Origin: a virus
Reading direction: 5' to 3' (one strand)
Virus genome (UHGV): UHGV-1410056
DNA: 40,444 nt
Shown here in pieces: positions 11,935 to 33,510 of this stretch. The position numbers were made by a program, and so were the translations under genes. The notes under the pieces were generated by a model, which did not search any database, had not been told where the DNA came from, and saw only the letters and a program-made list of their open reading frames with translations. The stretch's first letter is position 1, and each line of letters opens with the position of its first letter.

Positions 11935-12265
11935 ATCAGCAGCAGAGCGCAAAGCCGCTCAGAGAGCCAGACAAGCTGCATCTGGTGTGCGTAAGCTGGA
12001 AATTGTGCTTGATGCTCAGGAAATTGAAATGCTGGAGCGTAACTGTGCCACGCGTCGCCCCGGGCGTGCGCCTTACGAATTTGGTGAGTATATAGCGTTA
12101 CTGATCCGCCAGGATGATGCACGCGTGCGCGGGCGTATAAAATCGATCAGCAGAAAATGTTGCGGTAAGTGCGGCGAGAGAGTTCCAGTTAATTCATGCC
12201 CGTGTAATGGTGACTCGCAATGCTGGGTGACTAAAGGCTGGCATGAAACGAAATTAATAGTGTGA
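11927..12265 (+). CDS. Hypothetical basic protein with C-terminal Cys cluster; candidate late-gene regulator by position
   Basis: 112 aa from ATG 11927; C-terminal CCGKCGERVPVNSCPCNGDSQC; last early gene before a terminator and terS. Confidence 0.35.
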   Translation: MAKSAAERKAAQRARQAASGVRKLEIVLDAQEIEMLERNCATRRPGRAPYEFGEYIALLIRQDDARVRGRIKSISRKCCGKCGERVPVNSCPCNGDSQCWVTKGWHETKLIV

Positions 12266-12273
12266 CATGTCAC
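12262..12273. promoter_or_regulatory. Perfect 12-bp palindrome GTGACATGTCAC overlapping the stop codon of the upstream gene
   Basis: One of three near-identical palindromes (also 14527-14538, 31765-31776), each next to an intrinsic terminator. Confidence 0.45.
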
Positions 12274-12314
12274 GAGTAGATTATGCATGATGAATTTGAT
12301 GGGTTTTGAATACT

Positions 12315-12340
12315 GCCGCCAACTATGGCGGCTTTATTTT
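12315..12340 (+). terminator. Rho-independent terminator (tR'-like) upstream of the terminase genes
   Basis: Stem GCCGCC (12315-12320), loop AACTAT, stem GGCGGC (12327-12332), then TTTATTTT. Confidence 0.7.
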
Positions 12341-12383
12341 GCATGGTACTATTACCACAACGGTAACTATTACCACGGTGGTT

Positions 12384-12980
12384 ATGATGCCTGCTGAACC
12401 TAAAACCTATAAACGCAAATCAACGCAATTTAAGCCACTAACAGCAATGCAGGAGGCTTATTGCCAGTCATACATCAAAACGCCTGAAAACCAGACTCAG
12501 GCAGCGATTAACGCAGGATTCTCCCCAAATACAGCGGCAGTTAAAGCCAGTGTCATGATGCGCGATGAACGCATTCAAAAACGGATTGCCGAGTTGATGG
12601 AGGAGCGCAACAAACGAATGCGCGTCAGTGCTGATTACGTTCTCATGCGCCTGGTGGAGATCGACCAGATGGACGTGATCGACATCCTCAACGACGATGG
12701 GAGCCTTAAACCAATCCGTGAGTGGCCGAAAATCTGGCGCACTACGCTTAGTGGCTTTGATCTGTCATCGACCATCATGAACATGAACGAGGATTCGATA
12801 GAGACAATCCTCAAAAAAATTAAATGGCCTGACAAGGTGAAGAACCTTGAGCTGATTGGTAAGCATGTTGATGTCAACGCGTTCAAAGAACGTCTGGATG
12901 TTAATGTGAATGTGACAATTGCTGATCGCATAGCAGCAGCCAGGAAGCGACTCAAAGAACGTCAGGATGGTAATCAGTGA
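12384..12980 (+). CDS. Terminase small subunit
   Basis: 198 aa from ATG 12384; N-terminal HTH-like region (AAINAGFSPNTAAVKAS); directly upstream of and overlapping the large subunit; track ORF start at 12306 lies inside a terminator hairpin. Confidence 0.65.
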   Translation: MMPAEPKTYKRKSTQFKPLTAMQEAYCQSYIKTPENQTQAAINAGFSPNTAAVKASVMMRDERIQKRIAELMEERNKRMRVSADYVLMRLVEIDQMDVIDILNDDGSLKPIREWPKIWRTTLSGFDLSSTIMNMNEDSIETILKKIKWPDKVKNLELIGKHVDVNAFKERLDVNVNVTIADRIAAARKRLKERQDGNQ

Positions 12981-14452
12981 CAGATACAGCGTTATCTCCT
13001 GAAGAGCAGTTGATCGAGGATATTGCAGGGTTCACTCACGATCCGCTTGGCTATGCCCTCTATGCGTTCCCGTGGGGGGAAGAGGGGACTGAACTGGCAC
13101 ATGCTACCGGCCCACGTCAGTGGCAGGCTGATGCGTTCCGAGAGATACGTGATCACCTGCAGAATCCAGAGACGCGCTATCAGCCGCTTATGCTGGCACG
13201 TGCTTCGGGTCACGGTATTGGTAAATCCGCATTCATCTCAATGCTGATCAACTGGGGCATGTCCACTTGCGAGGATTGTAAGGTCGTGGTGACCGCCAAC
13301 ACCGACAACCAGCTACGAACGAAGACCTGGCCGGAAATTATCAAGTGGTCGAACCTTGCTATCACGGAAGACTGGTTTACCTGTACCGCTACCGCGATGT
13401 ACAGCAATGACCCAGGGCACGACAAGCGGTGGCGGGCTGACGCAATACCCTGGTCTGAGCACAACACTGAGGCATTCGCCGGACTACACAACGAGCGCAA
13501 ACGCATCATCGTGGTATTCGATGAAGCGTCGAACATTGCCGATCTGGTGTGGGAGGTAGCAGAGGGTGCGCTGACGGACGAAGACACCGAAATCATCTGG
13601 GTGGCGTTCGGGAACCCGACGCGTAACACCGGGCGTTTCCGTGAATGTTTCCGCAAGTACAAACACCGCTGGAAGTGTGCGCAGATTGACAGCCGGACGG
13701 TGGAAGGCACTAACAAACAGCAGTTGCAGAAATGGGTTGATGACTACGGGGAAGACAGCGACTTCGTTAAAATCCGTGTGCGCGGCATATTCCCTGATGC
13801 ATCTGAATTGCAGTTTATCCCTACCGGTCTTACTGACGAGGCAATGAAACGGGTGGTAACCGCTGCGCAGGTTGCACATGCTCCGGTGATAATCGGCGTT
13901 GACCCGGCATACTCCGGCGTTGATGACGCTGTGATATACCTGCGGCAGGGGCTACACAGTAAGGTGCTGTGGACTGGCAACAAGACTACCGACGATCTGA
14001 TTATGGCGAAGCGTATCGCTGACTTTGAAGACCAGTATCAGGCTGACGCGGTGTTCATCGACTTCGGTTACGGAACCGGTTTGAAGTCAATCGGTGACGG
14101 CTGGGGTCGTACATGGCAACTTGTTCCGTTCGGTGGCGCGTCTACTGACCCGCAGATGCTCAACAAGCGTGGGGAGATGTTCAATTCATGCAAGACATGG
14201 CTGAGGCTTGGCGGCATGCTGGATGACCAGGAAACAGCAGACGACCTGTCGGCGGCAGAGTACAAAGTTCGAGTGGACGGTAAAATCGTTATCGAACCGA
14301 AGGAAGATATCAAGGAGCGGCTTGGGCGTTCACCGGGTAAAGGCGATGCGCTACTGCTGACGTTTGCGTTCCCTGTGTCTAAGCGTCTGCGAATTCCCGG
14401 GCAGCAGAACCAGCAAGGCAAGGCCATCACAGATTACGATCCCTATGCTTAA
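12977..14452 (+). CDS. Terminase large subunit (ATPase/nuclease)
   Basis: 491 aa; Walker-A-like SGHGIGKS, VVFDEASN-type Walker B region and C-terminal nuclease-like region; GTG start overlapping terS stop. Confidence 0.85.
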   Translation: MTDTALSPEEQLIEDIAGFTHDPLGYALYAFPWGEEGTELAHATGPRQWQADAFREIRDHLQNPETRYQPLMLARASGHGIGKSAFISMLINWGMSTCEDCKVVVTANTDNQLRTKTWPEIIKWSNLAITEDWFTCTATAMYSNDPGHDKRWRADAIPWSEHNTEAFAGLHNERKRIIVVFDEASNIADLVWEVAEGALTDEDTEIIWVAFGNPTRNTGRFRECFRKYKHRWKCAQIDSRTVEGTNKQQLQKWVDDYGEDSDFVKIRVRGIFPDASELQFIPTGLTDEAMKRVVTAAQVAHAPVIIGVDPAYSGVDDAVIYLRQGLHSKVLWTGNKTTDDLIMAKRIADFEDQYQADAVFIDFGYGTGLKSIGDGWGRTWQLVPFGGASTDPQMLNKRGEMFNSCKTWLRLGGMLDDQETADDLSAAEYKVRVDGKIVIEPKEDIKERLGRSPGKGDALLLTFAFPVSKRLRIPGQQNQQGKAITDYDPYA

Positions 14453-14494
14453 TCCGCTTGAGGGGATAATGTTGTTGATATCCTCTGATGAGGA

Positions 14495-14530
14495 TAAAAC
14501 AAAGCCAGCTCATAGGCTGGCTGTTTGTGA
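14495..14530. terminator. Bidirectional intrinsic terminator between convergent terL and Gp49-like gene
   Basis: Stem AGCCAGC (14503-14509) / GCTGGCT (14516-14522), T-rich on plus side (GTTTGTG) and on minus side (TTTGTTTT). Confidence 0.6.
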
Positions 14531-14538
14531 TATGTCAC
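14527..14538. promoter_or_regulatory. Palindrome GTGATATGTCAC (11 of 12 match to GTGACATGTCAC)
   Basis: Abuts the bidirectional terminator. Confidence 0.4.
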
Positions 14539-14542
14539 GGTG

Positions 14543-14914
14543 TTATTGCTCGCTTAACTTCTGCTTCAGCAAGTAACCTTCAAGCATCCAGATTTTGTTT
14601 ACAGCATTCTGTCGGGCAATCTTCCGACCAATTTCTGCATCAAAGTTTTCCGGGCTTGCACAGGCGCTCTCTCCGGTGACGGTGAAGCCGTTGCGCAGCA
14701 CCAGGACGCAGAACGTCAGCAGAGAAAGTGATTCGTGCGGCTGGTAGTTTACCTCTCCGCCAGTATGTTTCACTTTTATGGCTACGCCAAAGGCACCATC
14801 TTCTGCTGTGAAATATGCCTCCTGAGCAATAATGCTCTCGATATGGTCTGGCTTAACGCGCGGCGCGGCTAAACCTTTAGCCTGAATTTCAGATTCAATG
14901 TCTTTGTCACTCAT
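14543..14914 (-). CDS. Gp49-like (Phage_gp49_66 family) protein; reverse-strand moron
   Basis: 123 aa; motifs GLAAPRV ... NGFTVTGESACASPENF ... WMLEGYLL typical of the gp49 family; AAGGTGAG SD. Confidence 0.55.
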   Translation of the reverse strand: MSDKDIESEIQAKGLAAPRVKPDHIESIIAQEAYFTAEDGAFGVAIKVKHTGGEVNYQPHESLSLLTFCVLVLRNGFTVTGESACASPENFDAEIGRKIARQNAVNKIWMLEGYLLKQKLSEQ

Positions 14915-14930
14915 AGTCTAATCTCACCTT

Positions 14931-14954
14931 AAAAAAATGCCCGGCGAACCGGGC
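14931..14954 (-). terminator. Rho-independent terminator (minus strand) immediately upstream of the Gp49-like start
   Basis: Stem GCCCGG (14939-14944) / CCGGGC (14949-14954) with A7 on plus (T7 on minus). Confidence 0.6.
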
Positions 14955-15032
14955 GAACTGGAAGCAATGAGTTATGCCTTCCGTGGCTGTACGGGTTTAC
15001 AGCATGAAGTCATCGCAATGGCGTCCTGCTGT

Positions 15033-15074
15033 AAAAAGGGCGGTGATAGTCCCTCAAGGGAAACCATCACCGCC
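15033..15074 (-). terminator. Terminator-like hairpin downstream of tRNA-Arg (minus strand)
   Basis: 9-bp stem GGCGGTGAT (15039-15047) / ATCACCGCC (15066-15074), with A5 on plus 15033-15037. Confidence 0.45.
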
Positions 15075-15117
15075 AAGCACCTGGAACTTCTGGCATCACG
15101 GTCCTTAGGCGTGATTC

Positions 15118-15194
15118 TGGCGTGGCATGCAGGATTCGAACCTGCGACCAACCGCTTAGAAGGCGGTTGCTCTGTCCAACTGAGCTAATGCCAC
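15118..15194 (-). tRNA. tRNA-Arg, anticodon UCU (reads AGA)
   Basis: 77 nt; manual fold gives 7-bp acceptor stem GUGGCAU/AUGCCAC, D-stem GCUC/GAGC, anticodon stem ACCGC/GCGGU with loop CUUCUAA, T-arm GCAGG-UUCGAAU-CCUGC, encoded CCA. Confidence 0.9.
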
Positions 15195-15516
15195 AACGCT
15201 GAGAGCACTTAGCCTGTTAAGGCGCCACACTTTGTCGCGGCTCCATAAATGCTCTCATCGTTGTACCCTCGTCTCTTCCGAGGCGTCACACCGAATCGCC
15301 GGGATGGTGAATCCCCGTGCGCGGAATAAAACCGCTCGACTTGCACATTCCGGCTACCTGGTTCGTTTGCCCGAGCAAGGGAGGGTGCCCCTTAAACGTA
15401 TCCAGACCGCTATCGGCGCATGTGCCATACGCCGTACTGCTCAAAATAAAAGCTCACTCCACCTGTTCAATTTAACGACAAGCCAGTCAGGTTAGTAACC
15501 GGAATGAACTCTTTGG

Positions 15517-15531
15517 TTACCTGAAAGGTAA
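15517..15531. promoter_or_regulatory. Perfect TTACC-tgaaa-GGTAA operator between the divergent tRNA/moron transcript and the structural operon
   Basis: Adjacent reverse-strand TTGACA (plus 15549-15554) 17 bp from a TACCTT -10 candidate. Confidence 0.5.
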
Positions 15532-15621
15532 TAATTTGTGCGTTAAATGTCAACTATCTACGATAAATAAATCATATGTGGTTAAATTGGTAATAATTTA
15601 ATTGCGTACGGAGTCATTGAT

Positions 15622-15828
15622 ATGTGCATGGGTAGCTCACCATCAGTGCCTGCAACACCAGAAGTTCAGGCAGCACCACAGGAGCAGGATGCCGCCGTTG
15701 TTGATGCCCGCGACGAAGAAACACGTCGCCGTCGCGCTGCTGCTGGTCGTAGTTCTACGCTGCTTACCGGTTCTCAGGGCGACACATCAACCGCTAATAC
15801 CAGCGGTAAAACGCTGCTTGGTCAGTAA
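15622..15828 (+). CDS. Small low-complexity protein (68 aa) preceding the portal gene
   Basis: ATG 15622 preceded by CGGAGTCATTGA, the same 12-nt initiation region that precedes the portal ATG. Confidence 0.45.
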   Translation: MCMGSSPSVPATPEVQAAPQEQDAAVVDARDEETRRRRAAAGRSSTLLTGSQGDTSTANTSGKTLLGQ

Positions 15829-15842
15829 CCGGAGTCATTGAA

Positions 15843-17522
15843 ATGGCGGAAACAACTAAAGAGCGATTGAACAAACAGTTCGCACAACTTGAAAGCGAGC
15901 GTCAGTCGTTCGAGCCGCACTGGCGCGAGTTGAGTGATTACATCAACCCGCGTGGTTCCCGCTTTCTGACTTCTGAGGTTAACCGTAACGATCGACGCAA
16001 TACACGCATTATTGATTCGACCGGGACTATGGCGGCGCGCACTCTCGCCAGCGGCATGATGTCAGGCATCACAAGCCCCGCGCGTCCGTGGTTTCGCCTG
16101 GCTACGCCAGATCCTGAAATGATGGATTATGGCCCTGTTAAGTTGTGGCTTGAGGCGGTGCAGAACCGCATGAACGATATGTTCAATAATTCGAATCTCT
16201 ATCAGTCGCTGCCGCAGTTATACGGAAGCCTCGGCACATACAGCACTGGTGCAATGGCAGTGCTGGAGGATGACGAGGACATCATTCGCACAATGCCATT
16301 CCCGATAGGCAGTTACTACCTGGCTAACTCACCTCGTGGCAGTGTGGACACCTGTTTTCGCAAGTTCTCTATGACTGTTCGTCAGCTTGTTCAGGAGTTC
16401 GGGCTAAATAACGTCAGCGAATCCGTAAAAAGCATGTGGGAAAGCGGAACCTACGAGAAGTGGATTGAAGTGATGCATTCGGTTTACCCGAACATTGACC
16501 GCGATACATCGAAGCTGGATAGCAAGAACAAGCCATTCAAATCGGTTTATTACGAGGTTGGTGGCGATAACGACAAGTTGTTGCGTGAGTCCGGATTCGA
16601 TGAGTTTCCAATTATGGCTCCGCGCTGGGAAGTTAACGGCGAAGATGTTTATGGATCATCATGCCCGGGTATGCTGGCGCTTGGACCTGTTAAGGCATTG
16701 CAGCTTCTCCAGAAGCGCAAGTCGCAGTTGATTGATAAAGCCACCAATCCGCCGATGGTTGCTCCGACTTCCCTCAAGAATCAGCGTGCCTCCCTTCTTC
16801 CTGGCGACATCACGTATATCGATCAGATTACTGGTCAGGATGGTTTCAGGCCTGCTTATCTGGTTAACCCCAGTACAGCAGATTTGGTGGCAGACATTCA
16901 GGACACCCGTCAAATCATTAACAGCGCCTACTTTGTCGATCTGTTCATGATGTTGCAGAACATCAATACCCGCTCGATGCCTGTTGAAGCGGTGATCGAA
17001 ATGAAAGAAGAAAAACTTCTGATGTTGGGGCCGGTTCTGGAGCGTCTGAACGACGAATGTCTTAATCCTCTCATTGATCGCGCTTTCTCGATGATGGTGC
17101 GTAAAAACATGCTGCCGCCACCGCCTGACGCGATGGAAGGTATGCCCCTGAAGGTCGAATACATTTCCGTCATGGCTCAGGCGCAGAAGTCTATCGGCCT
17201 GTCCAGTCTGGCGTCTACGGTCAACTTCATTGGTCAACTTGCGCAAGCGAAACCAGAAGCTCTCGACAAACTCAACGTTGATCAGGCGATCGATGCATTC
17301 GCTGATATGTCCGGAGTGTCTCCAACCGTCATTGTTCCGCAGGAACAGGTTGAGCAGGCTCGCCAGCAACGGGCACAGCAACAACAGCAGCAACAAATGA
17401 TGGCGATGGGGATGGCGGCGGCACAGGGTGCCAAGACGCTAAGCGAAGCTAAAACTTCGGATCCGAGTGTTTTGTCAGCTATGGCGAATGCAGTTAGTGG
17501 TCAGGGTGGGCAATCACAATGA
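15843..17522 (+). CDS. Portal (head-to-tail connector) protein, T7 gp8-like
   Basis: 559 aa; C-terminal Gln/Ala-rich tail (QQRAQQQQQQQMMAMGMAAAQGAKTL...) closely resembles the T7 gp8 C-terminus; follows terminase. Confidence 0.75.
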   Translation: MAETTKERLNKQFAQLESERQSFEPHWRELSDYINPRGSRFLTSEVNRNDRRNTRIIDSTGTMAARTLASGMMSGITSPARPWFRLATPDPEMMDYGPVKLWLEAVQNRMNDMFNNSNLYQSLPQLYGSLGTYSTGAMAVLEDDEDIIRTMPFPIGSYYLANSPRGSVDTCFRKFSMTVRQLVQEFGLNNVSESVKSMWESGTYEKWIEVMHSVYPNIDRDTSKLDSKNKPFKSVYYEVGGDNDKLLRESGFDEFPIMAPRWEVNGEDVYGSSCPGMLALGPVKALQLLQKRKSQLIDKATNPPMVAPTSLKNQRASLLPGDITYIDQITGQDGFRPAYLVNPSTADLVADIQDTRQIINSAYFVDLFMMLQNINTRSMPVEAVIEMKEEKLLMLGPVLERLNDECLNPLIDRAFSMMVRKNMLPPPPDAMEGMPLKVEYISVMAQAQKSIGLSSLASTVNFIGQLAQAKPEALDKLNVDQAIDAFADMSGVSPTVIVPQEQVEQARQQRAQQQQQQQMMAMGMAAAQGAKTLSEAKTSDPSVLSAMANAVSGQGGQSQ

Positions 17523-17815
17523 CAGATTACGAAGACGATCAACTGAAAGAAGAAAACGCCCGTAAGCAACGTGACATGGCACAGCGTGAAATTGATGACA
17601 TTTGCTTTGTCATGAGCAGTGAACAGGGGCGTCGCGTTGTCTGGTCGGTGCTGGAGAAAGGCCGTGTGTTTTCCGCTATCTCACCGATGGACGCTATGGC
17701 AATGGCATTTAATGAGGGGCAACGCAATCTGGCGCTGGAACTGTTTCAGCGCGTTATGGCGCATTGCCCTGAACAGTATTTGAAGATGGCCAAAGAGGCC
17801 AGTGAACAGGAGTGA
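17519..17815 (+). CDS. Hypothetical protein (98 aa) between portal and scaffold
   Basis: ATGA overlap with portal stop. Confidence 0.5.
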   Translation: MTDYEDDQLKEENARKQRDMAQREIDDICFVMSSEQGRRVVWSVLEKGRVFSAISPMDAMAMAFNEGQRNLALELFQRVMAHCPEQYLKMAKEASEQE

Positions 17816-17817
17816 TC

Positions 17818-18513
17818 ATGAATTTATTTGAGCGTTTGCTGTATCGCCGTCTTTGCAATGAGCAACCAGTCGATGGTGGAGCAGCTCCGGCTGCGTCAGA
17901 ACCGTCAGCGCCTGCAGGTGATAACCCTGCTCCAGTTGGTGATCCATCACAACAGGAAGGTGATAAGCCACAACCTGTTGCTGATGGCGATAAACCTGCT
18001 GATGACAAAAAGCCTGAAAACGATAAGCAGGATGAAAAAAAGGACGGCGATAAACCAGAGGGTGCGCCAGAAAAGTACGAGTTTCAGGCTGCCGAAGGCG
18101 TAGAGCTGGATACAGAAGCGTTGAAGGAATTCGAGCCGGTGGCGCGAGAACTAAACCTGACCAACGAGCAAGCGCAAAAGCTGGTTGATGCTTATCCGAA
18201 GATTCTGGCAGGTGTTCAGCAGCGCCAGGCAGAAGCCTGGCAGAAAACAACCGAGCAGTGGGCTGCGGATGTAAAAGCCGACAAAGAAATCGGTGGCGAC
18301 AAGTTGATTTCTAACCTTAGCGCCGCACAGCGTGCGCTTGACCAGTTCGGGACACCTGAACTCAAAGAATATCTGAACACCACCGGGCTGGGTAATCACC
18401 CTGATCTGGTCAAAACGTTCGTGAAAATCGGAAAGGCGATGTCTGAAGATGGCATGGTCACCGGTGGTAATGAAGGCCAGCGTAGTGCGGCCGAAGTGCT
18501 CTATGGCAAATAA
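17818..18513 (+). CDS. Putative scaffolding protein
   Basis: About 231 aa; Pro/Ala/Asp/Lys-rich acidic N-terminal half; immediately upstream of major capsid gene; ACAGGAG SD before ATG 17818. Confidence 0.5.
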   Translation: MNLFERLLYRRLCNEQPVDGGAAPAASEPSAPAGDNPAPVGDPSQQEGDKPQPVADGDKPADDKKPENDKQDEKKDGDKPEGAPEKYEFQAAEGVELDTEALKEFEPVARELNLTNEQAQKLVDAYPKILAGVQQRQAEAWQKTTEQWAADVKADKEIGGDKLISNLSAAQRALDQFGTPELKEYLNTTGLGNHPDLVKTFVKIGKAMSEDGMVTGGNEGQRSAAEVLYGK

Positions 18514-18527
18514 GAGAGGAAATGACA

Positions 18528-19514
18528 ATGGCTGTTAAAGGCTTAACTGCGCTAACGCTGGCTGACTGGGGTAAGCGCGTCGATCCAAACGGGAAAGTCG
18601 ATAAGATTATCGAGCTTCTCGGTCAAACTAACCCGATCCTTCAGGATATGCCTTTTGTCGAAGGGAACCTTCCTACCGGACACCGAACCACCATTCGTTC
18701 TGGTTTACCTTCAGCTACCTGGCGTTTGCTGAACTATGGCGTACAGCCAAGCAAATCAACCACAGTGCAGGTAACCGATTCCGTTGGCATGCTGGAAACC
18801 TATGCGGAAGTCGATAAGTCACTGGCTGATCTGAACGGCAATACCGCCGAATTCCGCCTTTCTGAAGACCGCGCATTTATTGAAGCGATGAATCAGCAGA
18901 TGGCGCAGACGCTGTTTTATGGTGATTCCAGCGTTAACCCTCAGCAGTTTATGGGACTGTCCTCCCGCTATTCCAGCCTGTCTGCGGGTAATGCTCAGAA
19001 CATCATTGATGCTGGTGGCACGGGTACAGATAACACCTCAATCTGGTTAGTGGTGTGGGGCGAAAACACCGTGCATGGCATCTTCCCGAAAGGGCAGAAG
19101 GCTGGCATCCAGATGGAAGATAAAGGCCAGGTGACACTGGAAGATGCTAATGGCGGCAAGTACGAAGGCTATCGCACCCATTACAAATGGGATAACGGAC
19201 TTGCTCTGCGTGACTGGCGTTATGTTGTTCGCATTGCAAACATCGATGTCAGCAATCTTTCAGAACCATCCTCTGCCGCAAATATTGCGAAGTTGATGGT
19301 TAAAGCACTACATCGCATTCCAAACCGTGGCATGGGCCGCCCGGTGTTCTACATGAACCGCACTGTAGGCCAGGCTCTTGATCTGCAGTCTCTGGAGAAA
19401 ACATCTCTGGCTATCAGCGTAAAAGAGACAGAAGGCGAGTGGTGGACTTCATTCCGTGGTGTACCAATCCGTGAAACTGATGCGCTTCTGGAAACAGAAG
19501 CCCGCGTGGTGTAA
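18528..19514 (+). CDS. Major capsid protein (HK97-fold, podovirus-type)
   Basis: About 328 aa; position after scaffold; SD GAGAGGA 8 nt before ATG 18528. Confidence 0.65.
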   Translation: MAVKGLTALTLADWGKRVDPNGKVDKIIELLGQTNPILQDMPFVEGNLPTGHRTTIRSGLPSATWRLLNYGVQPSKSTTVQVTDSVGMLETYAEVDKSLADLNGNTAEFRLSEDRAFIEAMNQQMAQTLFYGDSSVNPQQFMGLSSRYSSLSAGNAQNIIDAGGTGTDNTSIWLVVWGENTVHGIFPKGQKAGIQMEDKGQVTLEDANGGKYEGYRTHYKWDNGLALRDWRYVVRIANIDVSNLSEPSSAANIAKLMVKALHRIPNRGMGRPVFYMNRTVGQALDLQSLEKTSLAISVKETEGEWWTSFRGVPIRETDALLETEARVV

Positions 19515-19565
19515 CGCCTGTTATTAACCTGTGGGTCGTAACAGACCCACTAATGGAGAAAGAAG

Positions 19566-20003
19566 ATGATCACCGACAAACTGTTGATGTTCTCCGAAGC
19601 ACAGGCGGTAACTGATACCGCGGCTTCTACTGACGTAATCGATCTCGGTCCAATTGACGGAAAACGTCGTGATATCGGCGTTGGTTACCCGCTTGAGTTT
19701 TGGGCGCTGGTTAACACAGCCGCCGCGGCAAGCGGTGATGCAACTGTAAACATCCAGTTGCAGACGAGTGAAAATAACAGCTCATGGACCACTATTTATG
19801 ATAGTGGCGCACTGGCAAAGACCGCCCTGACAGCAGGTAAACGAGTTGTTTCTGCAAAGGTGCCTGCCGGTGTTCAGCGATATCTGCGTGTTAACTACTC
19901 CGTCGCAACTGGCCCACTAACGGCTGGCGAATTCACTGCTGGTATCAGTCTTGATGTTGATGCCAATACGCCGTATCCGATCCGCTCAAAAGTAACTGGT
20001 TAA
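19566..20003 (+). CDS. Putative capsid decoration/cement protein
   Basis: 145 aa, beta-rich; directly follows the major capsid gene. Confidence 0.4.
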   Translation: MITDKLLMFSEAQAVTDTAASTDVIDLGPIDGKRRDIGVGYPLEFWALVNTAAAASGDATVNIQLQTSENNSSWTTIYDSGALAKTALTAGKRVVSAKVPAGVQRYLRVNYSVATGPLTAGEFTAGISLDVDANTPYPIRSKVTG

Positions 20004-20013
20004 GGTGATATCG

Positions 20014-20349: not shown

Positions 20350-20366
20350 GCCTCGCGAATCCGACA

Positions 20367-20387
20367 AGGGGCTTCGGCCCCTTTATT
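20367..20387 (+). terminator. Terminator-like hairpin after the capsid gene cluster
   Basis: Stem AGGGGC / GCCCCT with loop TTCG, followed by TTATTG. Confidence 0.4.
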
Positions 20388-20399
20388 GCAGGAGTGTAT

Positions 20400-23799: not shown

Positions 23800-24263
23800 T
23801 GATCGATGTTCAAATTATTCCCGCAACCGAAGAGCATCTTCAGATGATTTTGCCGGATGTTCGTCAGGCTGATATTGACGAACTGTATGCGGTATCACTG
23901 ATGACTACCGAAGATGCGCTGCGTGTTGGTCTGCGTACTGCGACTATGGCCTGGTCAGGATTTGCGAACGGAGAACTGGTAACCATGTTTGGCGTATCTC
24001 CGGCGTCAATGATCGGTGGCAATGGTACGCCCTGGCTGGTCGGAACCAGCCGTATCGAAAAATATCAGAAGACATTTCTTCGCCACTGCCGCCCTGTATT
24101 GCAGCAGATGCTGGCAGTTTATCCGCGCCTGGAAAACTATGTCGACGAGCGAAACCATGTTGCCAAAGCATGGCTGCACTGGCTTGGATTCAGGCTTGAA
24201 GAAGCCGCGCCTTATGGTGCTCTTGGTCTTAATTTCCACAGATTTCACATGGAGAGAAAATAA
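23799..24263 (+). CDS. Hypothetical virion protein (154 aa)
   Basis: ATGA overlap with upstream gene. Confidence 0.45.
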   Translation: MIDVQIIPATEEHLQMILPDVRQADIDELYAVSLMTTEDALRVGLRTATMAWSGFANGELVTMFGVSPASMIGGNGTPWLVGTSRIEKYQKTFLRHCRPVLQQMLAVYPRLENYVDERNHVAKAWLHWLGFRLEEAAPYGALGLNFHRFHMERK

Positions 24264-24802
24264 TGTGTAACCCAGCCATCGCTTTGGTTGCCGTCACAGT
24301 GGCATCCACAGCCGCGTCAATGTACAGCCAGAGCAAGCAGGCAAAATACCAGTCAGCCATAGCTGATCGGAATGCTGAAATTGCTGAAGCTCAGGCACAG
24401 GATTCAATCAATCGTGGGAATATTGAAGCGGATCAGCGTCGTCGTGAAATGCGTCAACGCTCAGGCACTGCGGCGGCCACTATGGGGGCTACCGGTGCGG
24501 AATTAAGTAGCGGAACAGCTCTTGACGTTTTTGCGGATAATGCTCAGTTCGGCACTCTTGATGCGTTAACGACAGTGAATAATGCTCAGCGTGAGGCATA
24601 TGGGTATCAGGTTCAGGGAATGAATGCTCAGGCACAGGGGGCTGCTGCTCAGTCGGCTGCTAAATCATCGATGACCAGCACTTTGTTAACGGCACCACTA
24701 AAAGCATACGGTGCATACCAGATGGGCGGCGGAACGTGGAGCCCGTTCTCTCAGAAGGCTGCGCCGATTTCTGCTGCTGTTGGCACTCCAACCGGTCGAT
24801 AA
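24263..24802 (+). CDS. Internal virion protein (T7 gp14-like by composition and position)
   Basis: 179 aa; N-terminal hydrophobic segment then Ala/Gln-rich region. Confidence 0.4.
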   Translation: MCNPAIALVAVTVASTAASMYSQSKQAKYQSAIADRNAEIAEAQAQDSINRGNIEADQRRREMRQRSGTAAATMGATGAELSSGTALDVFADNAQFGTLDALTTVNNAQREAYGYQVQGMNAQAQGAAAQSAAKSSMTSTLLTAPLKAYGAYQMGGGTWSPFSQKAAPISAAVGTPTGR

Positions 24803-24814
24803 GGGGATAATAAG

Positions 24815-27328
24815 ATGCCAGTTGTACCAACAACATCGGGCCGTCAGGTTCAGAGCAGAGGGATTTCGACGCAGGGATTCTCATCGTTTCAGACACCAAA
24901 TGTCGGTGATGTACTTGGCGATGTTGCAGAGCAATATGCAGGTATTATTGCGCAGGCAAAACAGCGTGCGAATGTTGCTATGGCTCAGGATGCTTCTCTT
25001 AGCTTAAGCCAGATAAGCAGCGATCTGCTGAATAACCCTGAAACAGGTTTGCTTAACCTGAAAGGGAAAAATGCTATTGGAAAAGGTCAGGAGTATACGC
25101 AGCAGTTTGATGCTCAGGTCGAACAACTGGCTATGTCGCTGCCGGATGAACAGGCTCGTAATGCTTTCATGCAGCAGGCGCAGCAGCAGCGCATTCAGTT
25201 CACTACGCAGGCCGGGCGGCACGAGATAGGGCAAATAAATGCCTACGAAGAAGGCCAGTTTCAGGCTACGCTGCTGAACAATGGTAAAAATGCCGCAGCA
25301 TTGTATGGCGACAACGCCGCATACGTATTGGCTAATAAGCAAACTTTCCAGCAAATTGAGGATTACGGCATTGCACATGGCTGGAGTGACGAGCAAATCC
25401 AGGCCAAGAAAATCGAGTTTAAAGAAGCAACAGCAAAAGCAACTGCTCAAAATGCTATTGGAGCAAACTATCTTCAGGTAAGACAGCAAAACGGCGAGTT
25501 AAGCGATACTGCTGCTGGTTCTCGCCGTGCTGTAGCAGATAGTGGCTCTTCCGATCGTACCCGCGGTATACGCAACAATAACCCCGGCAATCTTGAATAC
25601 AGCAAAACTAATCCGTGGGTTGGGCAGACTGGTGATGATGGTCGCTTTGCCAAATTCGAAACCCCTGAACACGGTATTCGTGCATTAGGGCGGAACCTGA
25701 TGTCGTATCAGCGGCAGGGTATTGATACCGTCAGCGAGATAATTAATCGCTGGGCACCGCCTACTGATAAAAATGACACTATGTCGTATATCAAAGCAGT
25801 GTGCGAACAACTTGGCGTTTCTGCTGATGAGCCTCTCGATGCATCAAATCCTGATACCCTGAAGGCGCTTTGTGCAGCCATTATCCATCATGAAAACGGT
25901 AGCCAGCCATACAGTGATCAGCAGTTAACTGCAGGTGTTAGTGCTGCGCTGGGGCTTTCTCAGCTACCGACAAAAAATAAACGTTATACCGGTGTAGCCT
26001 GGTTCGATGCTTTAAGTGAATCAGATCAGGCCAGCGTGTTGCGACAGACTGATGCACTAGCCAGACAACAGCAGGCTGAATATAAAACGATGCTCGACAG
26101 CCGGGTTCGCGATGCGACGGCTGCGTATATGCGTGGCATTGAATTTCCTAACCCACCTGGTGAGGATGATTTTATTGCAGCTTATGGAGTCAGAGAAGGA
26201 AACCTGCGATATACCGAGTTTAAGAATACGCAGATCGCCGGACAGTATATAGGCTCTTTCCGCAACATGCCGACAAGCAGCATTACAGCATATGTTGAGC
26301 AATTACGCCCGGATACTGGTGATACAGGGGAGGGGTATGCGGCACGCGCAACTCTTTATGACAACGTTGTTTCGGCTGCAAATCAGGTGATAAAGCAGCG
26401 GCAGTCGGATCCTGTGCAGTTCTCTCTTGCCTCCGGACAGGCAAAGCCTATCGACATGAGCAATAAGGATAACTTTGGACAGAGCGTTGCCTTGCGTGCC
26501 GCTCAGGTCAGTGACCTTGCTAAGTCATATGGCACTCCACTGACGTTCTTTTCCAAATACGAGGCCAATCAGATCGGTGTTTTCTTTCGTGATGCTCCAG
26601 TTTCCCAACAGGCAGCATATCTCGATACCATCAGGCAGAGCACTGGTGGTGGGCAGGTGTATATGTCAGCACTACAGCAGATCAGTGCCAACGCTCCATC
26701 TGCTGCCGTTGCCGGGATACTGATGGATAAGCCTGGTGGTATTTTGGCAGAAAAAAACTGGTTTAATCCGGATGTTTCCGTGTCTCCTGAAACCGCTGCG
26801 CAGACAATTCTTGCTGGCGCGGCGGCTCGTAAAGGTACTGATGATGCGAAAGGTATTCCGATGCCTAAAGATGCTGATCTTCGCCTTGAGTTTTCTGACA
26901 TGGTGAAGGATGCATTTGCTGGTGACGCTCAGGGCGCATCAATGGCATACGAGATCGCAAAGGATTATTACGCTGGTGTGATGGCGAAAAAAGGCGTGGT
27001 ATCAGGCGAAATTGACAATGATGTCTGGAAACAGGCTGTTAACGTAGCTACAGGTGGCGTGCATGACTATAACGGAATGGGGAATGTCCTTTTGCCGTGG
27101 GGAATGTCTGCAGAGCAATTCGATAAGCAGGTTAATCAGGCTTGGAATGAACAAGTTGTCGGCTCCGGGATAAAAACACCGCCTGGTCAGTATGGTTTGC
27201 AAAGTTACGGCGATAGTCAGTACCTGGTGAAACTTGGTACTGGTTATCTGCTGAAAGATGATGGTTCTCCCGTTGTTCTTAATCTGACACAGAAGCGTCA
27301 GAGATTCTCCGGAGATATTCCGCAATGA
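24815..27328 (+). CDS. Internal virion / ejection protein with conserved RNNNPGN-containing domain
   Basis: 837 aa; segment RGIRNNNPGNLEY ... FAKFETPEHGIRALGRNL ... IINRWAP; possible cell-wall-acting domain (inference). Confidence 0.45.
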   Translation: MPVVPTTSGRQVQSRGISTQGFSSFQTPNVGDVLGDVAEQYAGIIAQAKQRANVAMAQDASLSLSQISSDLLNNPETGLLNLKGKNAIGKGQEYTQQFDAQVEQLAMSLPDEQARNAFMQQAQQQRIQFTTQAGRHEIGQINAYEEGQFQATLLNNGKNAAALYGDNAAYVLANKQTFQQIEDYGIAHGWSDEQIQAKKIEFKEATAKATAQNAIGANYLQVRQQNGELSDTAAGSRRAVADSGSSDRTRGIRNNNPGNLEYSKTNPWVGQTGDDGRFAKFETPEHGIRALGRNLMSYQRQGIDTVSEIINRWAPPTDKNDTMSYIKAVCEQLGVSADEPLDASNPDTLKALCAAIIHHENGSQPYSDQQLTAGVSAALGLSQLPTKNKRYTGVAWFDALSESDQASVLRQTDALARQQQAEYKTMLDSRVRDATAAYMRGIEFPNPPGEDDFIAAYGVREGNLRYTEFKNTQIAGQYIGSFRNMPTSSITAYVEQLRPDTGDTGEGYAARATLYDNVVSAANQVIKQRQSDPVQFSLASGQAKPIDMSNKDNFGQSVALRAAQVSDLAKSYGTPLTFFSKYEANQIGVFFRDAPVSQQAAYLDTIRQSTGGGQVYMSALQQISANAPSAAVAGILMDKPGGILAEKNWFNPDVSVSPETAAQTILAGAAARKGTDDAKGIPMPKDADLRLEFSDMVKDAFAGDAQGASMAYEIAKDYYAGVMAKKGVVSGEIDNDVWKQAVNVATGGVHDYNGMGNVLLPWGMSAEQFDKQVNQAWNEQVVGSGIKTPPGQYGLQSYGDSQYLVKLGTGYLLKDDGSPVVLNLTQKRQRFSGDIPQ

Positions 27329-29127
27329 GTTACTTTGGCCTTAATCCAGTAAACCAGAATCAGCAGCTTGACGAAGCAGCATCAAATCCAGCTGGCTTTA
27401 ACAGCGATGTTGGTTTTTTCGACAATGCTGTAGGAGCGGCATTGTCTGGTTTGTACTCCGGGCTGGTGGCAAAGCCAGATCAGTTGCTATGGGCAGGGAT
27501 GGATAAAATCGTATCCCCGATTGCTCAGTTTGTTAACGAAAACACCTCGATCAATGACACTTCAGTTTCATACATTGCTGAGCAGAGAAAACTAGCAGAG
27601 CAGCAGGTTAAGCGGCTGACGCCTGATGCCGCGACAACCGGAACCGCCGGGCAGGTCCTTTATGGGTTGTTCGATATGGGCGGGCAGGCTGTTGTCGGTA
27701 CAACGCTCGGTGGTCCGGTCGGAGGTGCTGCGGCGGTAACTTCTCTACAGGGTTTTTCTGAGTTTGAACGGCTTACAGCACAGGGTGTTGATTTCAGGAC
27801 GGCGCAGGAAGCGGGATTAGTGCAGGGTATTACTGCTGGTGCCGGAACACTGATCCCTATGAGCCTCGGGTTACGTGCTGGTGGTGCGCTGGCGGAAGGT
27901 GTGGCGGCTCAGCTTGCGCGGACGGGTGAAAGTTCAGTGCGACGCGCCGCAGCAACAGCAGTACGTGCAACGCCAGATATTGCCTATGCCGCAGGTACAA
28001 ATATTGCGTTCGGTATGGCACAGCGTGGGCTTACTGCAAAAACGCTTCGTGATGGTGGCTATAGCGAAATGGCTAACCAGTATGATGTGTTGGATCGACA
28101 GGCAATTGCTATTGATGCTGTTCTTGGGGTGGCGTTTGGTGGTGTCGGCAGATTTATTAACTCTCGCGGCGAGTCTACAAGCGCACCAAATTTTTCACCA
28201 GTTGATATCGATGCTGCACTGGCGGCGAATGCCGCTCATCATGCTGAAATTGATATTGCTCCCGGCGTGCCGATCAACGTGCTTTCGCGTAATTCGCACA
28301 TTCAGGCTCTGCGAAAAGCCATGTCTGATGTTAGCCAGGGGAGACCTGTAGACGTTGCCAGCATTGTTGAGTCTGCATCTTTCAGTGAAATTCCTGGACG
28401 CAAGAGTCTGCTGTCTCAGGCAGTTAATGAGGCTCTGTCATCTGTAGATGATGGAGTAACGGCGCGCGCTATAGAAAATCGGTTGCTTGAAGAACAGGCC
28501 GCGCAGCTTTTGCCGCGTGGCGATAGACAGGTTTACCAGTCTGAAATCGCTAATAGCCAACGAATTATTGAAAATCTCACTGAACAGCGCGCACAAATTC
28601 TTGCAGAAGATCCAGCCGGTAGCGGTAAAGCTTTGTCTCGTGCTCGATCAGATAAACAGGCCAGACTTCGGGATATTGACCAACGAATCCGGCAGGCACA
28701 AGAACGCCTGGAATTTTCCCGTAACGCGTTGGCACCGCATGAGCCTGGCGGTCAGTTTTTTGAAGCTCGAGCAGAACTGGCTCGGAGACAGCAGGCAGAA
28801 AGTGAACTTAATGCTCAGGCTGTTTCATTCTATAAAACAGCAGAGGTCAGGACGCCAGACGAAGTAGCTCCTTTTGATCCCGGTAAGATATTGCAACAGA
28901 CAGAACAAAAAATGATGGCAGATCCGGCAGGAGATATTGATCTGCGTATAGCTGAAGACTCGCTGCTTGAATATCCGGACATGATAATCACCGTGCTGGA
29001 TGATGATGGTAATCCACAATCGCGCAGCGCGCGTGAAGTACTGGATGAAGCGAACAGGGAAAGTGAGCAGGCAATACAGGATTCCAGCCTGTTTGATGTC
29101 GCTGTGGCGTGTTTCTTGAGAGGTTAA
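27325..29127 (+). CDS. Internal virion / ejection protein
   Basis: 600 aa; Gly/Ala-rich N-terminal half; ATGA overlap with upstream gene. Confidence 0.45.
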   Translation: MSYFGLNPVNQNQQLDEAASNPAGFNSDVGFFDNAVGAALSGLYSGLVAKPDQLLWAGMDKIVSPIAQFVNENTSINDTSVSYIAEQRKLAEQQVKRLTPDAATTGTAGQVLYGLFDMGGQAVVGTTLGGPVGGAAAVTSLQGFSEFERLTAQGVDFRTAQEAGLVQGITAGAGTLIPMSLGLRAGGALAEGVAAQLARTGESSVRRAAATAVRATPDIAYAAGTNIAFGMAQRGLTAKTLRDGGYSEMANQYDVLDRQAIAIDAVLGVAFGGVGRFINSRGESTSAPNFSPVDIDAALAANAAHHAEIDIAPGVPINVLSRNSHIQALRKAMSDVSQGRPVDVASIVESASFSEIPGRKSLLSQAVNEALSSVDDGVTARAIENRLLEEQAAQLLPRGDRQVYQSEIANSQRIIENLTEQRAQILAEDPAGSGKALSRARSDKQARLRDIDQRIRQAQERLEFSRNALAPHEPGGQFFEARAELARRQQAESELNAQAVSFYKTAEVRTPDEVAPFDPGKILQQTEQKMMADPAGDIDLRIAEDSLLEYPDMIITVLDDDGNPQSRSAREVLDEANRESEQAIQDSSLFDVAVACFLRG

Positions 29128-29132
29128 ATTAA

Positions 29133-31607
29133 ATGAGACAGGAATGTATACAAGCGGTCCAGCAGGCGGCGCAGCGCACGTTAACGGCGCGAGAAATACA
29201 GAACATTGAAGACCGCATTTATCGAAATATGCGCTCCATTGCTCGTGATGACCCGATGTCGTGGAGACAACTTTCCGAATCAGAGCGGCTATATCGAGCA
29301 GCACAATTGGCATCTGAAGAATTACAGCGAGAAGCGGCATTAAAGAAACGTCGTGTGACTCTCACTATAGCCGCGCGTCAGAGATTGGATAAATTTATCA
29401 ATAGCTATCAAGGGGCTGATGGGAAACTTGGCGCTCTTAACCGTACTATAGCTTTTAATGCAGACGGTAAATCTAATTTCCTCTCTGTTGAATCCAGAAC
29501 AAAAGCCACCCGTGATTATGCATTGAGTCAATTGCAGGAGGCATTCGAAGCAGTTGATCCTCGCTTTTTTGGTCTGTTTGAAGATGAAGCGGGCGTACGT
29601 GACCTGGTATATGAAATGCGGGGGCAAAATACTGGCAATGCTAAAGCAAGAAACGGTGCTAAGGCGTGGAGAGAAGTTACAGAGCTGCTGCGCCGCCGGT
29701 TTAATGATGCTGGTGGGGACATTGGCTATCTCGAAAACTGGGGGATCCCTCAACATCATTCTATGGAAAAGGTTGGGGCAGTATCAAAGGATAAGTGGGT
29801 TAGCGATGTTATAGGTAAGCTGGATCGCAAATATTATATCCGAGCCGATGGACAACTGATGAACGATGCCGAGTTGTCTTCATTTCTTGGAGAGGCTTAT
29901 AACACGATCGCTACTGGTGGGCTGAATAAGCTTACTGATACCGGAATGCGAATTTCCGGCGCACGTGCTAACCGTGGTAATGCATCACGACAGATACATT
30001 TCAAAGATGCAGATTCCTATCTGCAATATCAGCAACTTTATGGCGATCGCTCTCTATGGGAAATCATGGTCGGTCACCTGGAAGGTATCAGTAAAGATAT
30101 TGCACTGGTGGAAACATATGGCCCAAACCCCGATCATGTTTTCCGCTCTCTTCTTGATCAGGTGAAGGCAGAAACGGCAACAGCTAACCAGAGTAAAACC
30201 GGTAAAGTCGAGCGGCTGGCGAACAACACAGAGAATCTGTACAACTTTATTTCCGGAAAGACACAGCCTGTAGCGAATCCGCACATCGCGCGATGGTCTG
30301 ACAATATCCGCAACTGGCTGGTTGCCAGCAGACTCGGATCCGCGTTGCTGTCATCGTTCTCTGATCTTGGAACCATGTATCTGTCTGCGAAGGTTACCAA
30401 CCTTCCAATGAACCAGTTATTCCGCAACCAGCTTGAAGCTATGGACCCAACGAACCGTACAGAACTTGCGCGGGCGCGCCGCGCTGGTCTGGCGATGGAA
30501 TCTCTACTTGGCAGCGTTAACCGCTGGGCGATGGATAATATGGGGCCGTCAGTGTCTCGTTGGGCGGCAACGGCGGTAATGCGTGCCAGTGGGCTTACAG
30601 CATGGTCAGATGCGCACAAGCGCGCCTATGGCGTAACCATGATGGGAAGCCTGGGAGAAGTAGTGTCACGTACACCAGACCTTCGTAGCCTCGATGACTC
30701 TGATTTTCGTATCCTGAAAAGCAAAGGGATTACTGACACAGACTGGAGCGTATGGAAGCTGGCGAAACAGGAGGACTGGGGGAACGGTAATAATACGATG
30801 CTGACACCGGAAAGCATTATGCGTATCCCTGATTCAGCAGTTAAACATCTTGGTGAGCCTGAACGCGTGAAATTTGAGGCAATGCGTAAACTGCTCGGTG
30901 CCGTAACTGAAGAAGTTGATATGGCTGTTATTACACCGGGAGCACGTGAGCAACTGATAACCGGTTCTGGTATTCAGCGTGGAACATGGAAAGGTGAATT
31001 AACGAGAAGTGTTTTCCTGTTTAAATCGTTCCCTATCTCGGTGGTTATGCGTCACTGGTCACGCGCTATGGGTATGCCGTCTGCTGGTGGGCGTGCGGCA
31101 TATATTGCGACGTTTATTGCCAGTACGACCATTCTTGGCGCTTTGTCGCAGCAACTTAACGACCTTGCGTCTGGTCGTAATCCTCGCGAGATGACAGGAG
31201 AAGATGCTGCTAAATTTTGGCTTGGTGCTCTACTGAAAGGTGGTGGTCTTGGCCTTTACGGTGACTTTTTATTGTCAGATCACACTAGGTACGGAAGCGG
31301 CGCGCTGGCGTCGATGCTTGGCCCGGTAGCTGGTCTGGTTGATGACGTAGTGAAGATTGCTCAGGGCATACCGTTAAATGCTGTGGAAGGGAAGAGTGAG
31401 CAGACTGGTGGTGATCTGGTTAAGCTGGGGAAAGGTCTGATGCCAGGTGCGAATCTCTGGTACTTGAAGGCGGCTCTCGATCACATGATCTTTAACCAGA
31501 TGCAGGAGTATTTTTCACCAGGTTATTTGCGTAAAATGGAGCAACGTTCGAAGAAAGAGTTTAACCAGACATACTGGTGGCGACCACAGGATGTCACTCC
31601 GCAATAA
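29133..31607 (+). CDS. Large internal virion / ejection protein
   Basis: 824 aa; last gene of the virion block before the accessory island. Confidence 0.45.
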   Translation: MRQECIQAVQQAAQRTLTAREIQNIEDRIYRNMRSIARDDPMSWRQLSESERLYRAAQLASEELQREAALKKRRVTLTIAARQRLDKFINSYQGADGKLGALNRTIAFNADGKSNFLSVESRTKATRDYALSQLQEAFEAVDPRFFGLFEDEAGVRDLVYEMRGQNTGNAKARNGAKAWREVTELLRRRFNDAGGDIGYLENWGIPQHHSMEKVGAVSKDKWVSDVIGKLDRKYYIRADGQLMNDAELSSFLGEAYNTIATGGLNKLTDTGMRISGARANRGNASRQIHFKDADSYLQYQQLYGDRSLWEIMVGHLEGISKDIALVETYGPNPDHVFRSLLDQVKAETATANQSKTGKVERLANNTENLYNFISGKTQPVANPHIARWSDNIRNWLVASRLGSALLSSFSDLGTMYLSAKVTNLPMNQLFRNQLEAMDPTNRTELARARRAGLAMESLLGSVNRWAMDNMGPSVSRWAATAVMRASGLTAWSDAHKRAYGVTMMGSLGEVVSRTPDLRSLDDSDFRILKSKGITDTDWSVWKLAKQEDWGNGNNTMLTPESIMRIPDSAVKHLGEPERVKFEAMRKLLGAVTEEVDMAVITPGAREQLITGSGIQRGTWKGELTRSVFLFKSFPISVVMRHWSRAMGMPSAGGRAAYIATFIASTTILGALSQQLNDLASGRNPREMTGEDAAKFWLGALLKGGGLGLYGDFLLSDHTRYGSGALASMLGPVAGLVDDVVKIAQGIPLNAVEGKSEQTGGDLVKLGKGLMPGANLWYLKAALDHMIFNQMQEYFSPGYLRKMEQRSKKEFNQTYWWRPQDVTPQ

Positions 31608-31616
31608 GGATGAGAA

Positions 31617-31757
31617 ATGATTGCTTTTATTCTTGTTGTGTTTGCGCTTGTTGCACTTGGCGTTATGAACCGTAAATGTATCATTGACGATGGCGAATTT
31701 GCTGTTGCAGTTATTATGATATTATCTGGTGTAGCAGGGTACATAGGCTTGTCATAA
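31617..31757 (+). CDS. Small membrane protein (46 aa, MIAFILVVFALVALGVMNRKCIIDDGEFAVAVIMILSGVAGYIGLS)
   Basis: Not in the ORF track; ATG 31617 with AAGGATGAG SD 9 nt after the upstream stop; two hydrophobic segments. Confidence 0.45.
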   Translation: MIAFILVVFALVALGVMNRKCIIDDGEFAVAVIMILSGVAGYIGLS

Positions 31758-31764
31758 CGTGAGC

Positions 31765-31776
31765 GTGACATGTCAC
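31765..31776. promoter_or_regulatory. Perfect 12-bp palindrome GTGACATGTCAC
   Basis: Identical to 12262-12273; immediately followed by terminator 31777-31801. Confidence 0.45.
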
Positions 31777-31801
31777 AGGCCGCTTTCGCGGCCTTGTTTT
31801 T
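31777..31801 (+). terminator. Rho-independent terminator ending the virion operon
   Basis: Stem AGGCCGC / GCGGCCT with loop TTTC, followed by TGTTTTT. Confidence 0.7.
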
Positions 31802-33492: not shown

Positions 33493-33510
33493 GGTGGTTA
33501 TCTCCACTTA

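Follow-up and report, generated by a model that had tools for sequence, protein, structure and literature searches.

Which factor reads a 12-bp palindrome that recurs beside intrinsic terminators in the virus genome UHGV-1410056, and what does it do there? The window, by which we mean the whole stretch of 40,444 nucleotides analysed, is a phiV10/epsilon15-type podophage genome (40.4 kb, genus Uetakevirus) that runs in prophage order from the integrase to the lysis genes. An earlier reading of the letters alone (the original prediction) had placed perfect copies of GTGACATGTCAC at 12262 and 31765 and a one-mismatch form, GTGATATGTCAC, at 14527, and these copies and coordinates are borne out. 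Comparison across phages points, at a probability that we put near 0.9, to the palindrome being the cognate DNA site of the phage's own 112-residue protein, which has a predicted ribbon-helix-helix (RHH) fold and zinc knuckle. We further propose, at a probability of only 0.4–0.5, that the bound protein would act as a boundary or roadblock at the ends of transcription units, with an insulating action and autoregulation that we infer from the placement of the sites.

The palindrome and its surroundings

The copies in the window, the gene of the proposed binder and the adjacent terminators are as follows.

12262-12273, copy 1: GTGACATGTCAC; contains the TGA stop codon (12263-12265) of the RHH gene
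14527-14538, copy 2: GTGATATGTCAC, one mismatch; flanked at 4 nt by the hairpin and, also at 4 nt, by the stop codon of a minus-strand gene
31765-31776, copy 3: GTGACATGTCAC; adjoins terminator 3 without a gap, 7 nt 3' of the stop codon of a 46-codon open reading frame (ORF)
17571-17582, further one-mismatch copy: GTGACATGGCAC; inside ORF 17519-17815, no terminator nearby; status uncertain
11927..12265, plus strand: gene for the 112-residue protein with RHH and four-cysteine (Cys4) knuckle; last gene of the early rightward unit; proposed palindrome binder
12315..12340, plus strand, terminator 1: GCCGCC-loop-GGCGGC and T-tract; ends the early unit
14503..14522, terminator 2: hairpin scored on both strands; between terL (plus) and the minus-strand cargo gene
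31777..31801, plus strand, terminator 3: AGGCCGC-loop-GCGGCCT and T-tract; unidirectional

Each of the three copies lies 0–7 nt from the last stop codon and 0–41 nt from an intrinsic terminator, and the terminators were found as originally placed (12315-12332 plus T-tract on the plus strand, 14503-14522 on both strands, 31777-31794 plus T-tract on the plus strand only). Dinucleotide-preserving shuffles give 0.04 expected palindrome matches, and the observed count was reached in 0 of 100. The reported overlap of copy 1 with the end of ORF 11927-12265 is exact: the first base of the palindrome is the final base of the last sense codon, and the TGA forms its bases 2–4. Copy 1 marks a tandem junction between the early unit and the terminase unit, and copies 2 and 3 mark junctions of convergent units. 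Copy 2 is upstream of its hairpin for the minus-strand gene only; for terL transcripts it lies just downstream. Terminator 3 is missing its T-tract for minus-strand transcripts, which reach copy 3 straight after the hairpin. The association of all copies with terminators stands for these three, but not for the further copy at 17571-17582, which is intragenic and away from terminators.

That the element is a site for a DNA-binding dimer rather than an RNA structure, as had been suggested, is supported by its perfect dyad and its negligible RNA fold. As RNA the 12-mer reaches only −1.2 kcal/mol (z = −0.03 against shuffles), in agreement with the earlier claim that it forms no stable hairpin, and it is not part of the terminator stems, from which it folds apart. 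When Rfam 15 was searched at the gathering score, no family covered any copy, and the matches in the window (tRNA-Arg, isrK and C4 RNA) all lie elsewhere.

Epsilon15, which is only about 80% identical to the window even in conserved genes, has perfect copies at the three orthologous places, where flanks, spacers and adjoining gene ends differ. All three copies are likewise perfect at orthologous places in Enterobacter phage Tyrion, and phiV10 has the same copies, its linear record ending inside copy 1. Klebsiella phage Kp4865-1 has copies 1 and 2, and at the copy-3 position (32095-32130) the right half-site GTCAC only, before a conserved terminator 3. The copy-2 layout is the same in epsilon15, Kp4865-1 and Tyrion, and most relatives have copy 2 in its perfect form, as against one mismatch in the window. 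Among 80 close relatives, one side of copy 2 is constant and the other is occupied by at least five unrelated genes, each with its stop codon 4 nt from the palindrome. This cargo slot contains a Phage_gp49_66 gene in the window, a gene for a Tad2-like anti-Thoeris protein in two relatives (L006 and L080) and, elsewhere, genes for small proteins of at least three further unrelated kinds; the accessory slot between copy 2 and the structural operon is likely a counter-defence hot spot. Between copy 1 and terminator 1, a small gene of about 70 codons is intact in 23 of 80 close-relative contigs, the window keeping a 3' remnant only, and terminator 1 itself is kept in epsilon15 and Tyrion and missing in Kp4865-1. 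Because flanks, spacers and cargo genes vary and an optional gene separates copy 1 from terminator 1, the palindrome is, on this comparison, a conserved island, and copy 1 goes with the stop codon upstream of it and not with the terminator.

The 112-residue protein and its probable pairing with the palindrome

The product of 11927-12265 is phiV10 p55 and epsilon15 gp49, and a homologue of N15 gp46 (PHROG 536; no Pfam family match). Its N-terminal half models as an RHH DNA-binding fold, with the beta-alpha-alpha arrangement of such a domain in the predicted structure, and is followed by a four-cysteine knuckle with the pattern CxxC-x8-C-x7-C. Foldseek against the PDB gave a weak RHH-like match only, and the Aeromonas member of the family matches the RHH-type YbfE model with an E of 4e-5, which falls short of the cut-off. 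The family is small, with 152 clusters at 50% identity out of 1.84 billion representatives. Within the library searched, the literature on the 12-mers, this phage group and N15 gp46 had nothing relevant on the motif or the protein's function, and the protein–site pair is previously undescribed.

Homologues were located by tblastn in 153 phage records from unrelated groups, and motif counts were pooled over 189 homologue-bearing loci (3.58 Mb). Inverted pairs of the form GTGAC-Nx-GTCAC occur 0, 6, 314, 2, 0, 4 and 4 times as x goes from 0 to 6, the expectation being 3.4 at every spacing; that is, 314 of 330 pairs have a 2-bp spacer and the other spacers, including 3 bp (n = 2), stand at chance level. 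The homologues belong to about 10 phage clades, and all those examined carry GTGAC-N2-GTCAC except the Aeromonas clade, which has a near variant. PY54 (a relative of N15), P2 and Sf6 have no homologue of the protein and no site at any spacing. When all 5-mers were ranked as half-sites at a gap of 2, GTGAC came first or tied first in epsilon15, Vibrio K308, PhiPS02 and clades P0227 and P0183, and second in N15 and the P0150 clade. In the whole N15 genome the top half-site at this gap is that of CGACC-N2-GGTCG (n = 4), probably the dispersed Sop centromere repeats, which would be a second dispersed-palindrome system beside the GTGAC sites. The sites are distributed over the other clades as follows.

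N15: 3 sites, one over the gp46 stop codon in the same G/TGA phase
49 N15-like contigs (with 2 Vibrio contigs): a stop-codon site in each of the 49; 110 sites over the 51 loci together, where chance predicts 0.87
Yersinia and other P2-like phages: sites in tandem pairs; 684 kb contain 34 sites, where chance predicts 0.65
Vibrio K308 / PhiPS02: sites located 19 nt upstream of terS and of further genes
Vibrio 10N: a stop-codon site and a second site directly next to a bidirectional terminator
Aeromonas: variant GTGACCGGACAC in three copies, one before the protein's own gene
Paraglaciecola metagenome-assembled genome (MAG), P0227 clade, P0183 clade: 1, 11 and 3 sites, respectively; the MAG and the P0227 clade have one over the stop codon

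Five clades, with proteins that are only about 35% identical, have a site lying over the stop codon of the homologue itself, always in the same phase; the overlap is found in epsilon15, Kp4865-1, the 49 N15-like contigs, the Vibrio 10N phage, the Paraglaciecola MAG and the P0227 clade. The tandem pair of the P2-like phages consists of GTGACATGGCAC and GTGACATGTCAC 33 bp apart (L144 10847-10891; L084 11675-11719), so that the one-mismatch variant of the window recurs there next to a perfect copy; the pair lies in a non-coding stretch that has the early region or a cos-like sequence rich in G+C on one side and the convergent portal gene's terminator on the other. The Aeromonas sites each follow a −10-like hexamer by 2–16 nt, including the one before the protein's own gene, and are possibly promoter-proximal. 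In lineages other than that of epsilon15, most sites are intergenic, frequently 9–19 nt ahead of a start codon, and usually away from terminators; tight terminator adjacency is mainly an epsilon15-lineage trait. Copies without terminators had been named in advance as evidence against a terminator-linked role, and this objection applies in part, namely to the other lineages.

The original prediction had offered the 11927-12265 product as one candidate binder. This candidate is strongly supported by the RHH fold, the co-occurrence with the site in about 10 clades, the 2-bp spacing and the stop-codon overlap in five clades, and the comparison likewise supports the predicted fold and the boundary positions of the sites.

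A proposed boundary role for the bound dimer

We propose that one RHH dimer would bind each GTGAC-N2-GTCAC and that the bound dimer would serve as a boundary element, a protein roadblock that halts polymerase where units end and reinforces the terminators. At copy 3 the dimer would be the sole barrier to minus-strand transcripts, as the hairpin has no T-tract in that direction. At copy 1 polymerase would stall before the protein's own stop codon, and the resulting message without a stop codon would limit synthesis of the protein by feedback; autoregulation is suggested at this copy because the palindrome starts one base before that stop codon. The roadblock model is favoured because RHH proteins are usually repressors, the junctions are convergent, the distance of 0–7 nt to the stop codon is constant despite the swapped upstream gene, and the placement in Aeromonas is repressor-like. 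The P2-like pair between the early region and the convergent portal-gene terminator and the Vibrio 10N site at a bidirectional terminator also support a boundary placement.

Parallels exist among known repressors. With P22 Arc, Mnt and the plasmid CopG-type repressors the system would share a small RHH dimer on short dyad-symmetric DNA and, probably, autoregulation. However, their operators overlap promoters, whereas the window sites lie at unit 3' ends and over the protein's own stop codon, and these repressors are without the zinc module of the 112-residue protein. Abo et al. reportedly found in 2000 that LacI bound to an operator at the 3' end of lacI gives rise to a truncated, tmRNA-tagged product. 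Here too the putative operator lies where the coding sequence of the regulator itself ends and, as we propose, a stop-less message would be expected, although LacI is a helix-turn-helix tetramer with its main operator at the promoter.

Several points weigh against the boundary model. The roadblock action is one that we infer only from sequence, and a roadblock just before the terminator of the heavily used structural operon would deprive late messages of their protective 3' hairpin, which seems counter-productive unless the roadblock is leaky. Kp4865-1 keeps terminator 3 with half of copy 3, and the copy is therefore dispensable at least there (the record is marked UNVERIFIED). The intragenic sites in N15 repA, the Kp4865-1 tail-fibre gene and the window (17571) are awkward for a pure boundary model. 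The loci are phylogenetically clustered, the effective sample being about 10 clades and not 189 loci, and the Pfam RHH-type models (RHH_5, RHH_1, RepB) match 2–3 of 56 family members only, and weakly.

The N15 site in the repA coding sequence (33237-33248) lies about 620 nt from the start of the gene. Nearly all sufficiently long N15-like contigs have a second site 4.3–7.1 kb upstream of gp46, consistent with the repA position and unexplained by a pure boundary model.

Four further roles for the sites were rejected. A class II activator site is ruled out by the distance of only 9–19 nt to downstream start codons in other clades, and a toxin-antitoxin pair with the downstream gene by the fact that the downstream genes are unrelated. 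In P2-like phages and part of the Vibrio phages the sites are close to cos or terS, as a pac or cos signal would be, yet they are far from cos in N15. A promoter with GTGACA as its −35 element has weak matches at copy 1 only, which are not conserved in the lineage of the window.

Neighbouring features and alternative readings

Other features near the three copies bear on what else the palindrome might do.

12290..12309, plus strand: 3' remnant of a small (~70-codon) gene, recognized by comparison with close relatives
12344-12352, plus strand: extended −10-like TGgTACTAT directly after terminator 1; overlaps TTACC-N5-GGTAA at 12352-12366, about 20 nt before the terS ATG (12387)
14543..14914, minus strand: variable cargo gene, Phage_gp49_66 family (Pfam E 1.9e-34); abuts copy 2
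31617..31757, plus strand: small ORF of 46 aa, equal to phiV10 p21; last in the long structural unit

An extended −10-like TGnTA(C/T)TAT that overlaps a TTACC operator about 20 nt from terS is kept in four diverged relatives, including epsilon15, Tyrion and Kp4865-1, and 12344-12366 is probably the terminase unit's (terS-terL) own promoter and operator. The 15-bp palindrome TTACC-N5-GGTAA occurs 11 times in the window (5405, 5468, 6180, 8467, 8529, 12352, 15517, 32695, 33762, 33855 and 34975), both in the immunity region and ahead of terS, the tail-fibre gene, the structural operon and the Bro-N/antirepressor unit. In the epsilon15 record, which is heavily annotated, its equivalents are entered as repressor sites and the GTGAC sites are unmarked. 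From this placement and annotation, TTACC-N5-GGTAA marks the starts of lytic units, which suggests that one repressor directly controls every lytic unit. The GTGAC sites are ruled out as immunity repressor operators, since those operators are this different palindrome.

Other observations were made at these junctions. The phiV10 RefSeq record starts terS (window 12306-12980) at a TTG in front of terminator 1, so that the frame would run across the terminator; the ATG of epsilon15 type at 12387 (12387-12980) is far more plausible, and the phiV10 start codon is probably mis-annotated. In Kp4865-1 the place of terminator 1 is taken by a segment (12709-13110) with a TTGACT/TATACT promoter that a perfect LexA box, TACTGTTTAAATATACAGTA, overlaps and that drives an S24/UmuD-like gene. 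A tRNA-Arg gene (anticodon TCT; 15118-15194, minus strand) lies between the promoter region of the structural operon and the cargo gene. Rfam matches to C4 antisense RNA and isrK RNA (33541-33624 and 33649-33725, both minus strand) lie upstream of the Bro-N gene (32782-33507), and together they form a P1/N15-type RNA-controlled anti-immunity module in a podophage. N15 genes 41-43 are presumably the corresponding antirepressor operon, and gp46, the homologue of the palindrome protein, lies downstream of them.

An architectural role in the manner of MatP/matS, the organiser of the Ter macrodomain in E. coli and relatives, is unlikely. Dimers would bridge sites through the C-terminal zinc module, with secondary effects on transcription, and would loop out the terminase unit (copies 1–2, 2.3 kb) and the structural unit (copies 2–3, 17 kb), or otherwise organise, position or shield the DNA. 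The GTGAC and GTCAC half-sites are identical to those of matS, a 13-bp site (GTGACRNYGTCAC; PMC6907758), and MatP uses its RHH domain, which in the phage protein is predicted, for dimerisation and matS contact (PMC12756933). Both systems have few dispersed copies per replicon, with 2–4 dispersed or tandem sites in nearly every whole phage genome examined. The host range of MatP matches that of the phages carrying the family, whose hosts we take to be gamma-proteobacteria having MatP. However, matS has a 3-bp spacer as against 2 bp in the 314 phage sites, and the latter are placed at gene-block ends. No sequence homology was detectable (hhalign probability 0.6% against a single MatP sequence, the retrieved MatP homologues being at least 97% identical, plus one at 69%). 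The MatP domains (PF06303, four-helix bundle; PF17414, RHH and coiled coil) are absent among the 25 Pfam families listed for 56 members. In place of the four-helix bundle and coiled coil the phage protein has a Cys4 knuckle; at 112 residues it is too short for the bundle, and its likeness to MatP is at the level of the RHH fold only. There is no sign of higher oligomers, and the fact that sites recur next to stop codons, ribosome-binding sites and terminators speaks for a role in gene expression.

It is also conceivable, although improbable, that the system is a phage-borne counterpart of MatP/matS, in which the RHH and zinc-knuckle protein would read matS-like half-sites at a private 2-bp spacing and mark unit ends as an insulator or loop anchor, throttling itself by stalling polymerase on its own stop codon.

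Antitermination is likewise an unlikely explanation. A protein on the palindrome would transfer to passing RNA polymerase before each terminator and cause read-through, perhaps by means of a TraR/DksA-like zinc module. The site does precede the terminator at copies 1 and 3, and at copy 2 on the minus strand, and the gene occupies the 'Q position' in epsilon15-like, Vibrio and Aeromonas phages, as the last before late, lysis or terminase genes. A regulator as the last early gene, a DNA site right after it and a terminator before packaging or late genes recall lambda Q and tR'. In a search of the family profile against PDB sequences, TraR and YbiI made up the top three, at a weak E of ~0.03, and hhalign against a TraR alignment gave 62% probability; TraR/DksA also share with the family the order of long helix, CxxCG..(I/L)P knuckle and short C-terminal helix. 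However, fold searches gave no support, PF01258 (TraR/DksA) matched neither the window protein nor the 56 members, the fourth cysteine is placed differently (the spacing is not CxxC-x17-CxxC), and the equivalent of the channel-entering helix is part of the RHH core here. Homology to TraR/DksA is at best weakly indicated and was set aside.

The genomic context likewise argues against read-through. Late terminase expression need not rely on it, because the conserved extended −10 and operator precede terS, behind terminator 1, and Kp4865-1 is without that terminator. N15 carries both the palindrome protein (gp46) and a separate Q-like late activator, gp40. At the convergent junctions of copies 2 and 3 read-through would give antisense RNA only, and most sites in other clades are away from terminators. 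Lambda Q has another fold, and its site is embedded in a late promoter; as for such a Q-type binding element, copy 1 has only a weak, non-conserved promoter-like match using the left half-site, and copies 2 and 3 have none. Because of these points, and since the TraR/DksA lead does not hold up, the antitermination reading is weaker than the roadblock model, and the late-antiterminator role that the original prediction had envisaged is not supported. The system works like an RHH–operator pair with matS-like half-sites and belongs to none of the MatP, Q and TraR families.

It is very unlikely that the palindrome is chiefly a recombination junction or hot spot for swapping accessory genes. At least five unrelated genes, including those for the Phage_gp49_66 and Tad2-like proteins, abut copy 2 in phages with 96–100% identical RHH proteins, downstream of copy 1 there may be an optional small gene or one under LexA control, and the novel joint of Kp4865-1 at copy 3 falls within the palindrome. 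However, the homology break at copy 2 is at the cargo stop codon, 4–7 nt beyond the palindrome, as is typical of gene-border selection, no recombinase is linked to the sites, and the stop-codon overlap and the link to the RHH protein would be left unexplained.

Finally, a host protein (MatP, with the sites as matS mimics), an RNA element or chance recurrence is most improbable: the half-sites are the same as in matS and all copies are in transcribed 3' regions, yet matS-type 3-bp sites are at chance (2 in 3.58 Mb), the sites track the phage protein and are absent with it from PY54, P2 and Sf6, the hairpin is negligible and without an Rfam family, the Aeromonas variant breaks RNA pairing yet is present three times, and chance would give 0.04 copies.

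The pairing gives PHROG 536 (N15 gp46, epsilon15 gp49), a widespread family nominally annotated as 'transcriptional regulator', a concrete and testable function and a motif, GTGAC-N2-GTCAC. Epsilon15-type phages have two separate palindrome systems, one at unit starts and one at unit ends. Given half-sites so like those of matS, one may ask whether the system has a common ancestry or cross-talk with the host chromosome organiser, and a true counterpart of MatP/matS might link terminators to promoters so that polymerase is recycled, or bar host SMC/MukBEF-type machines or colliding polymerases from defined segments. If the sites are protein boundaries, as we propose, one small gene and a 12-bp site would constitute an insulator module both compact and portable, of use to synthetic biology, and would account for the way in which dense convergent phage modules avoid interference.

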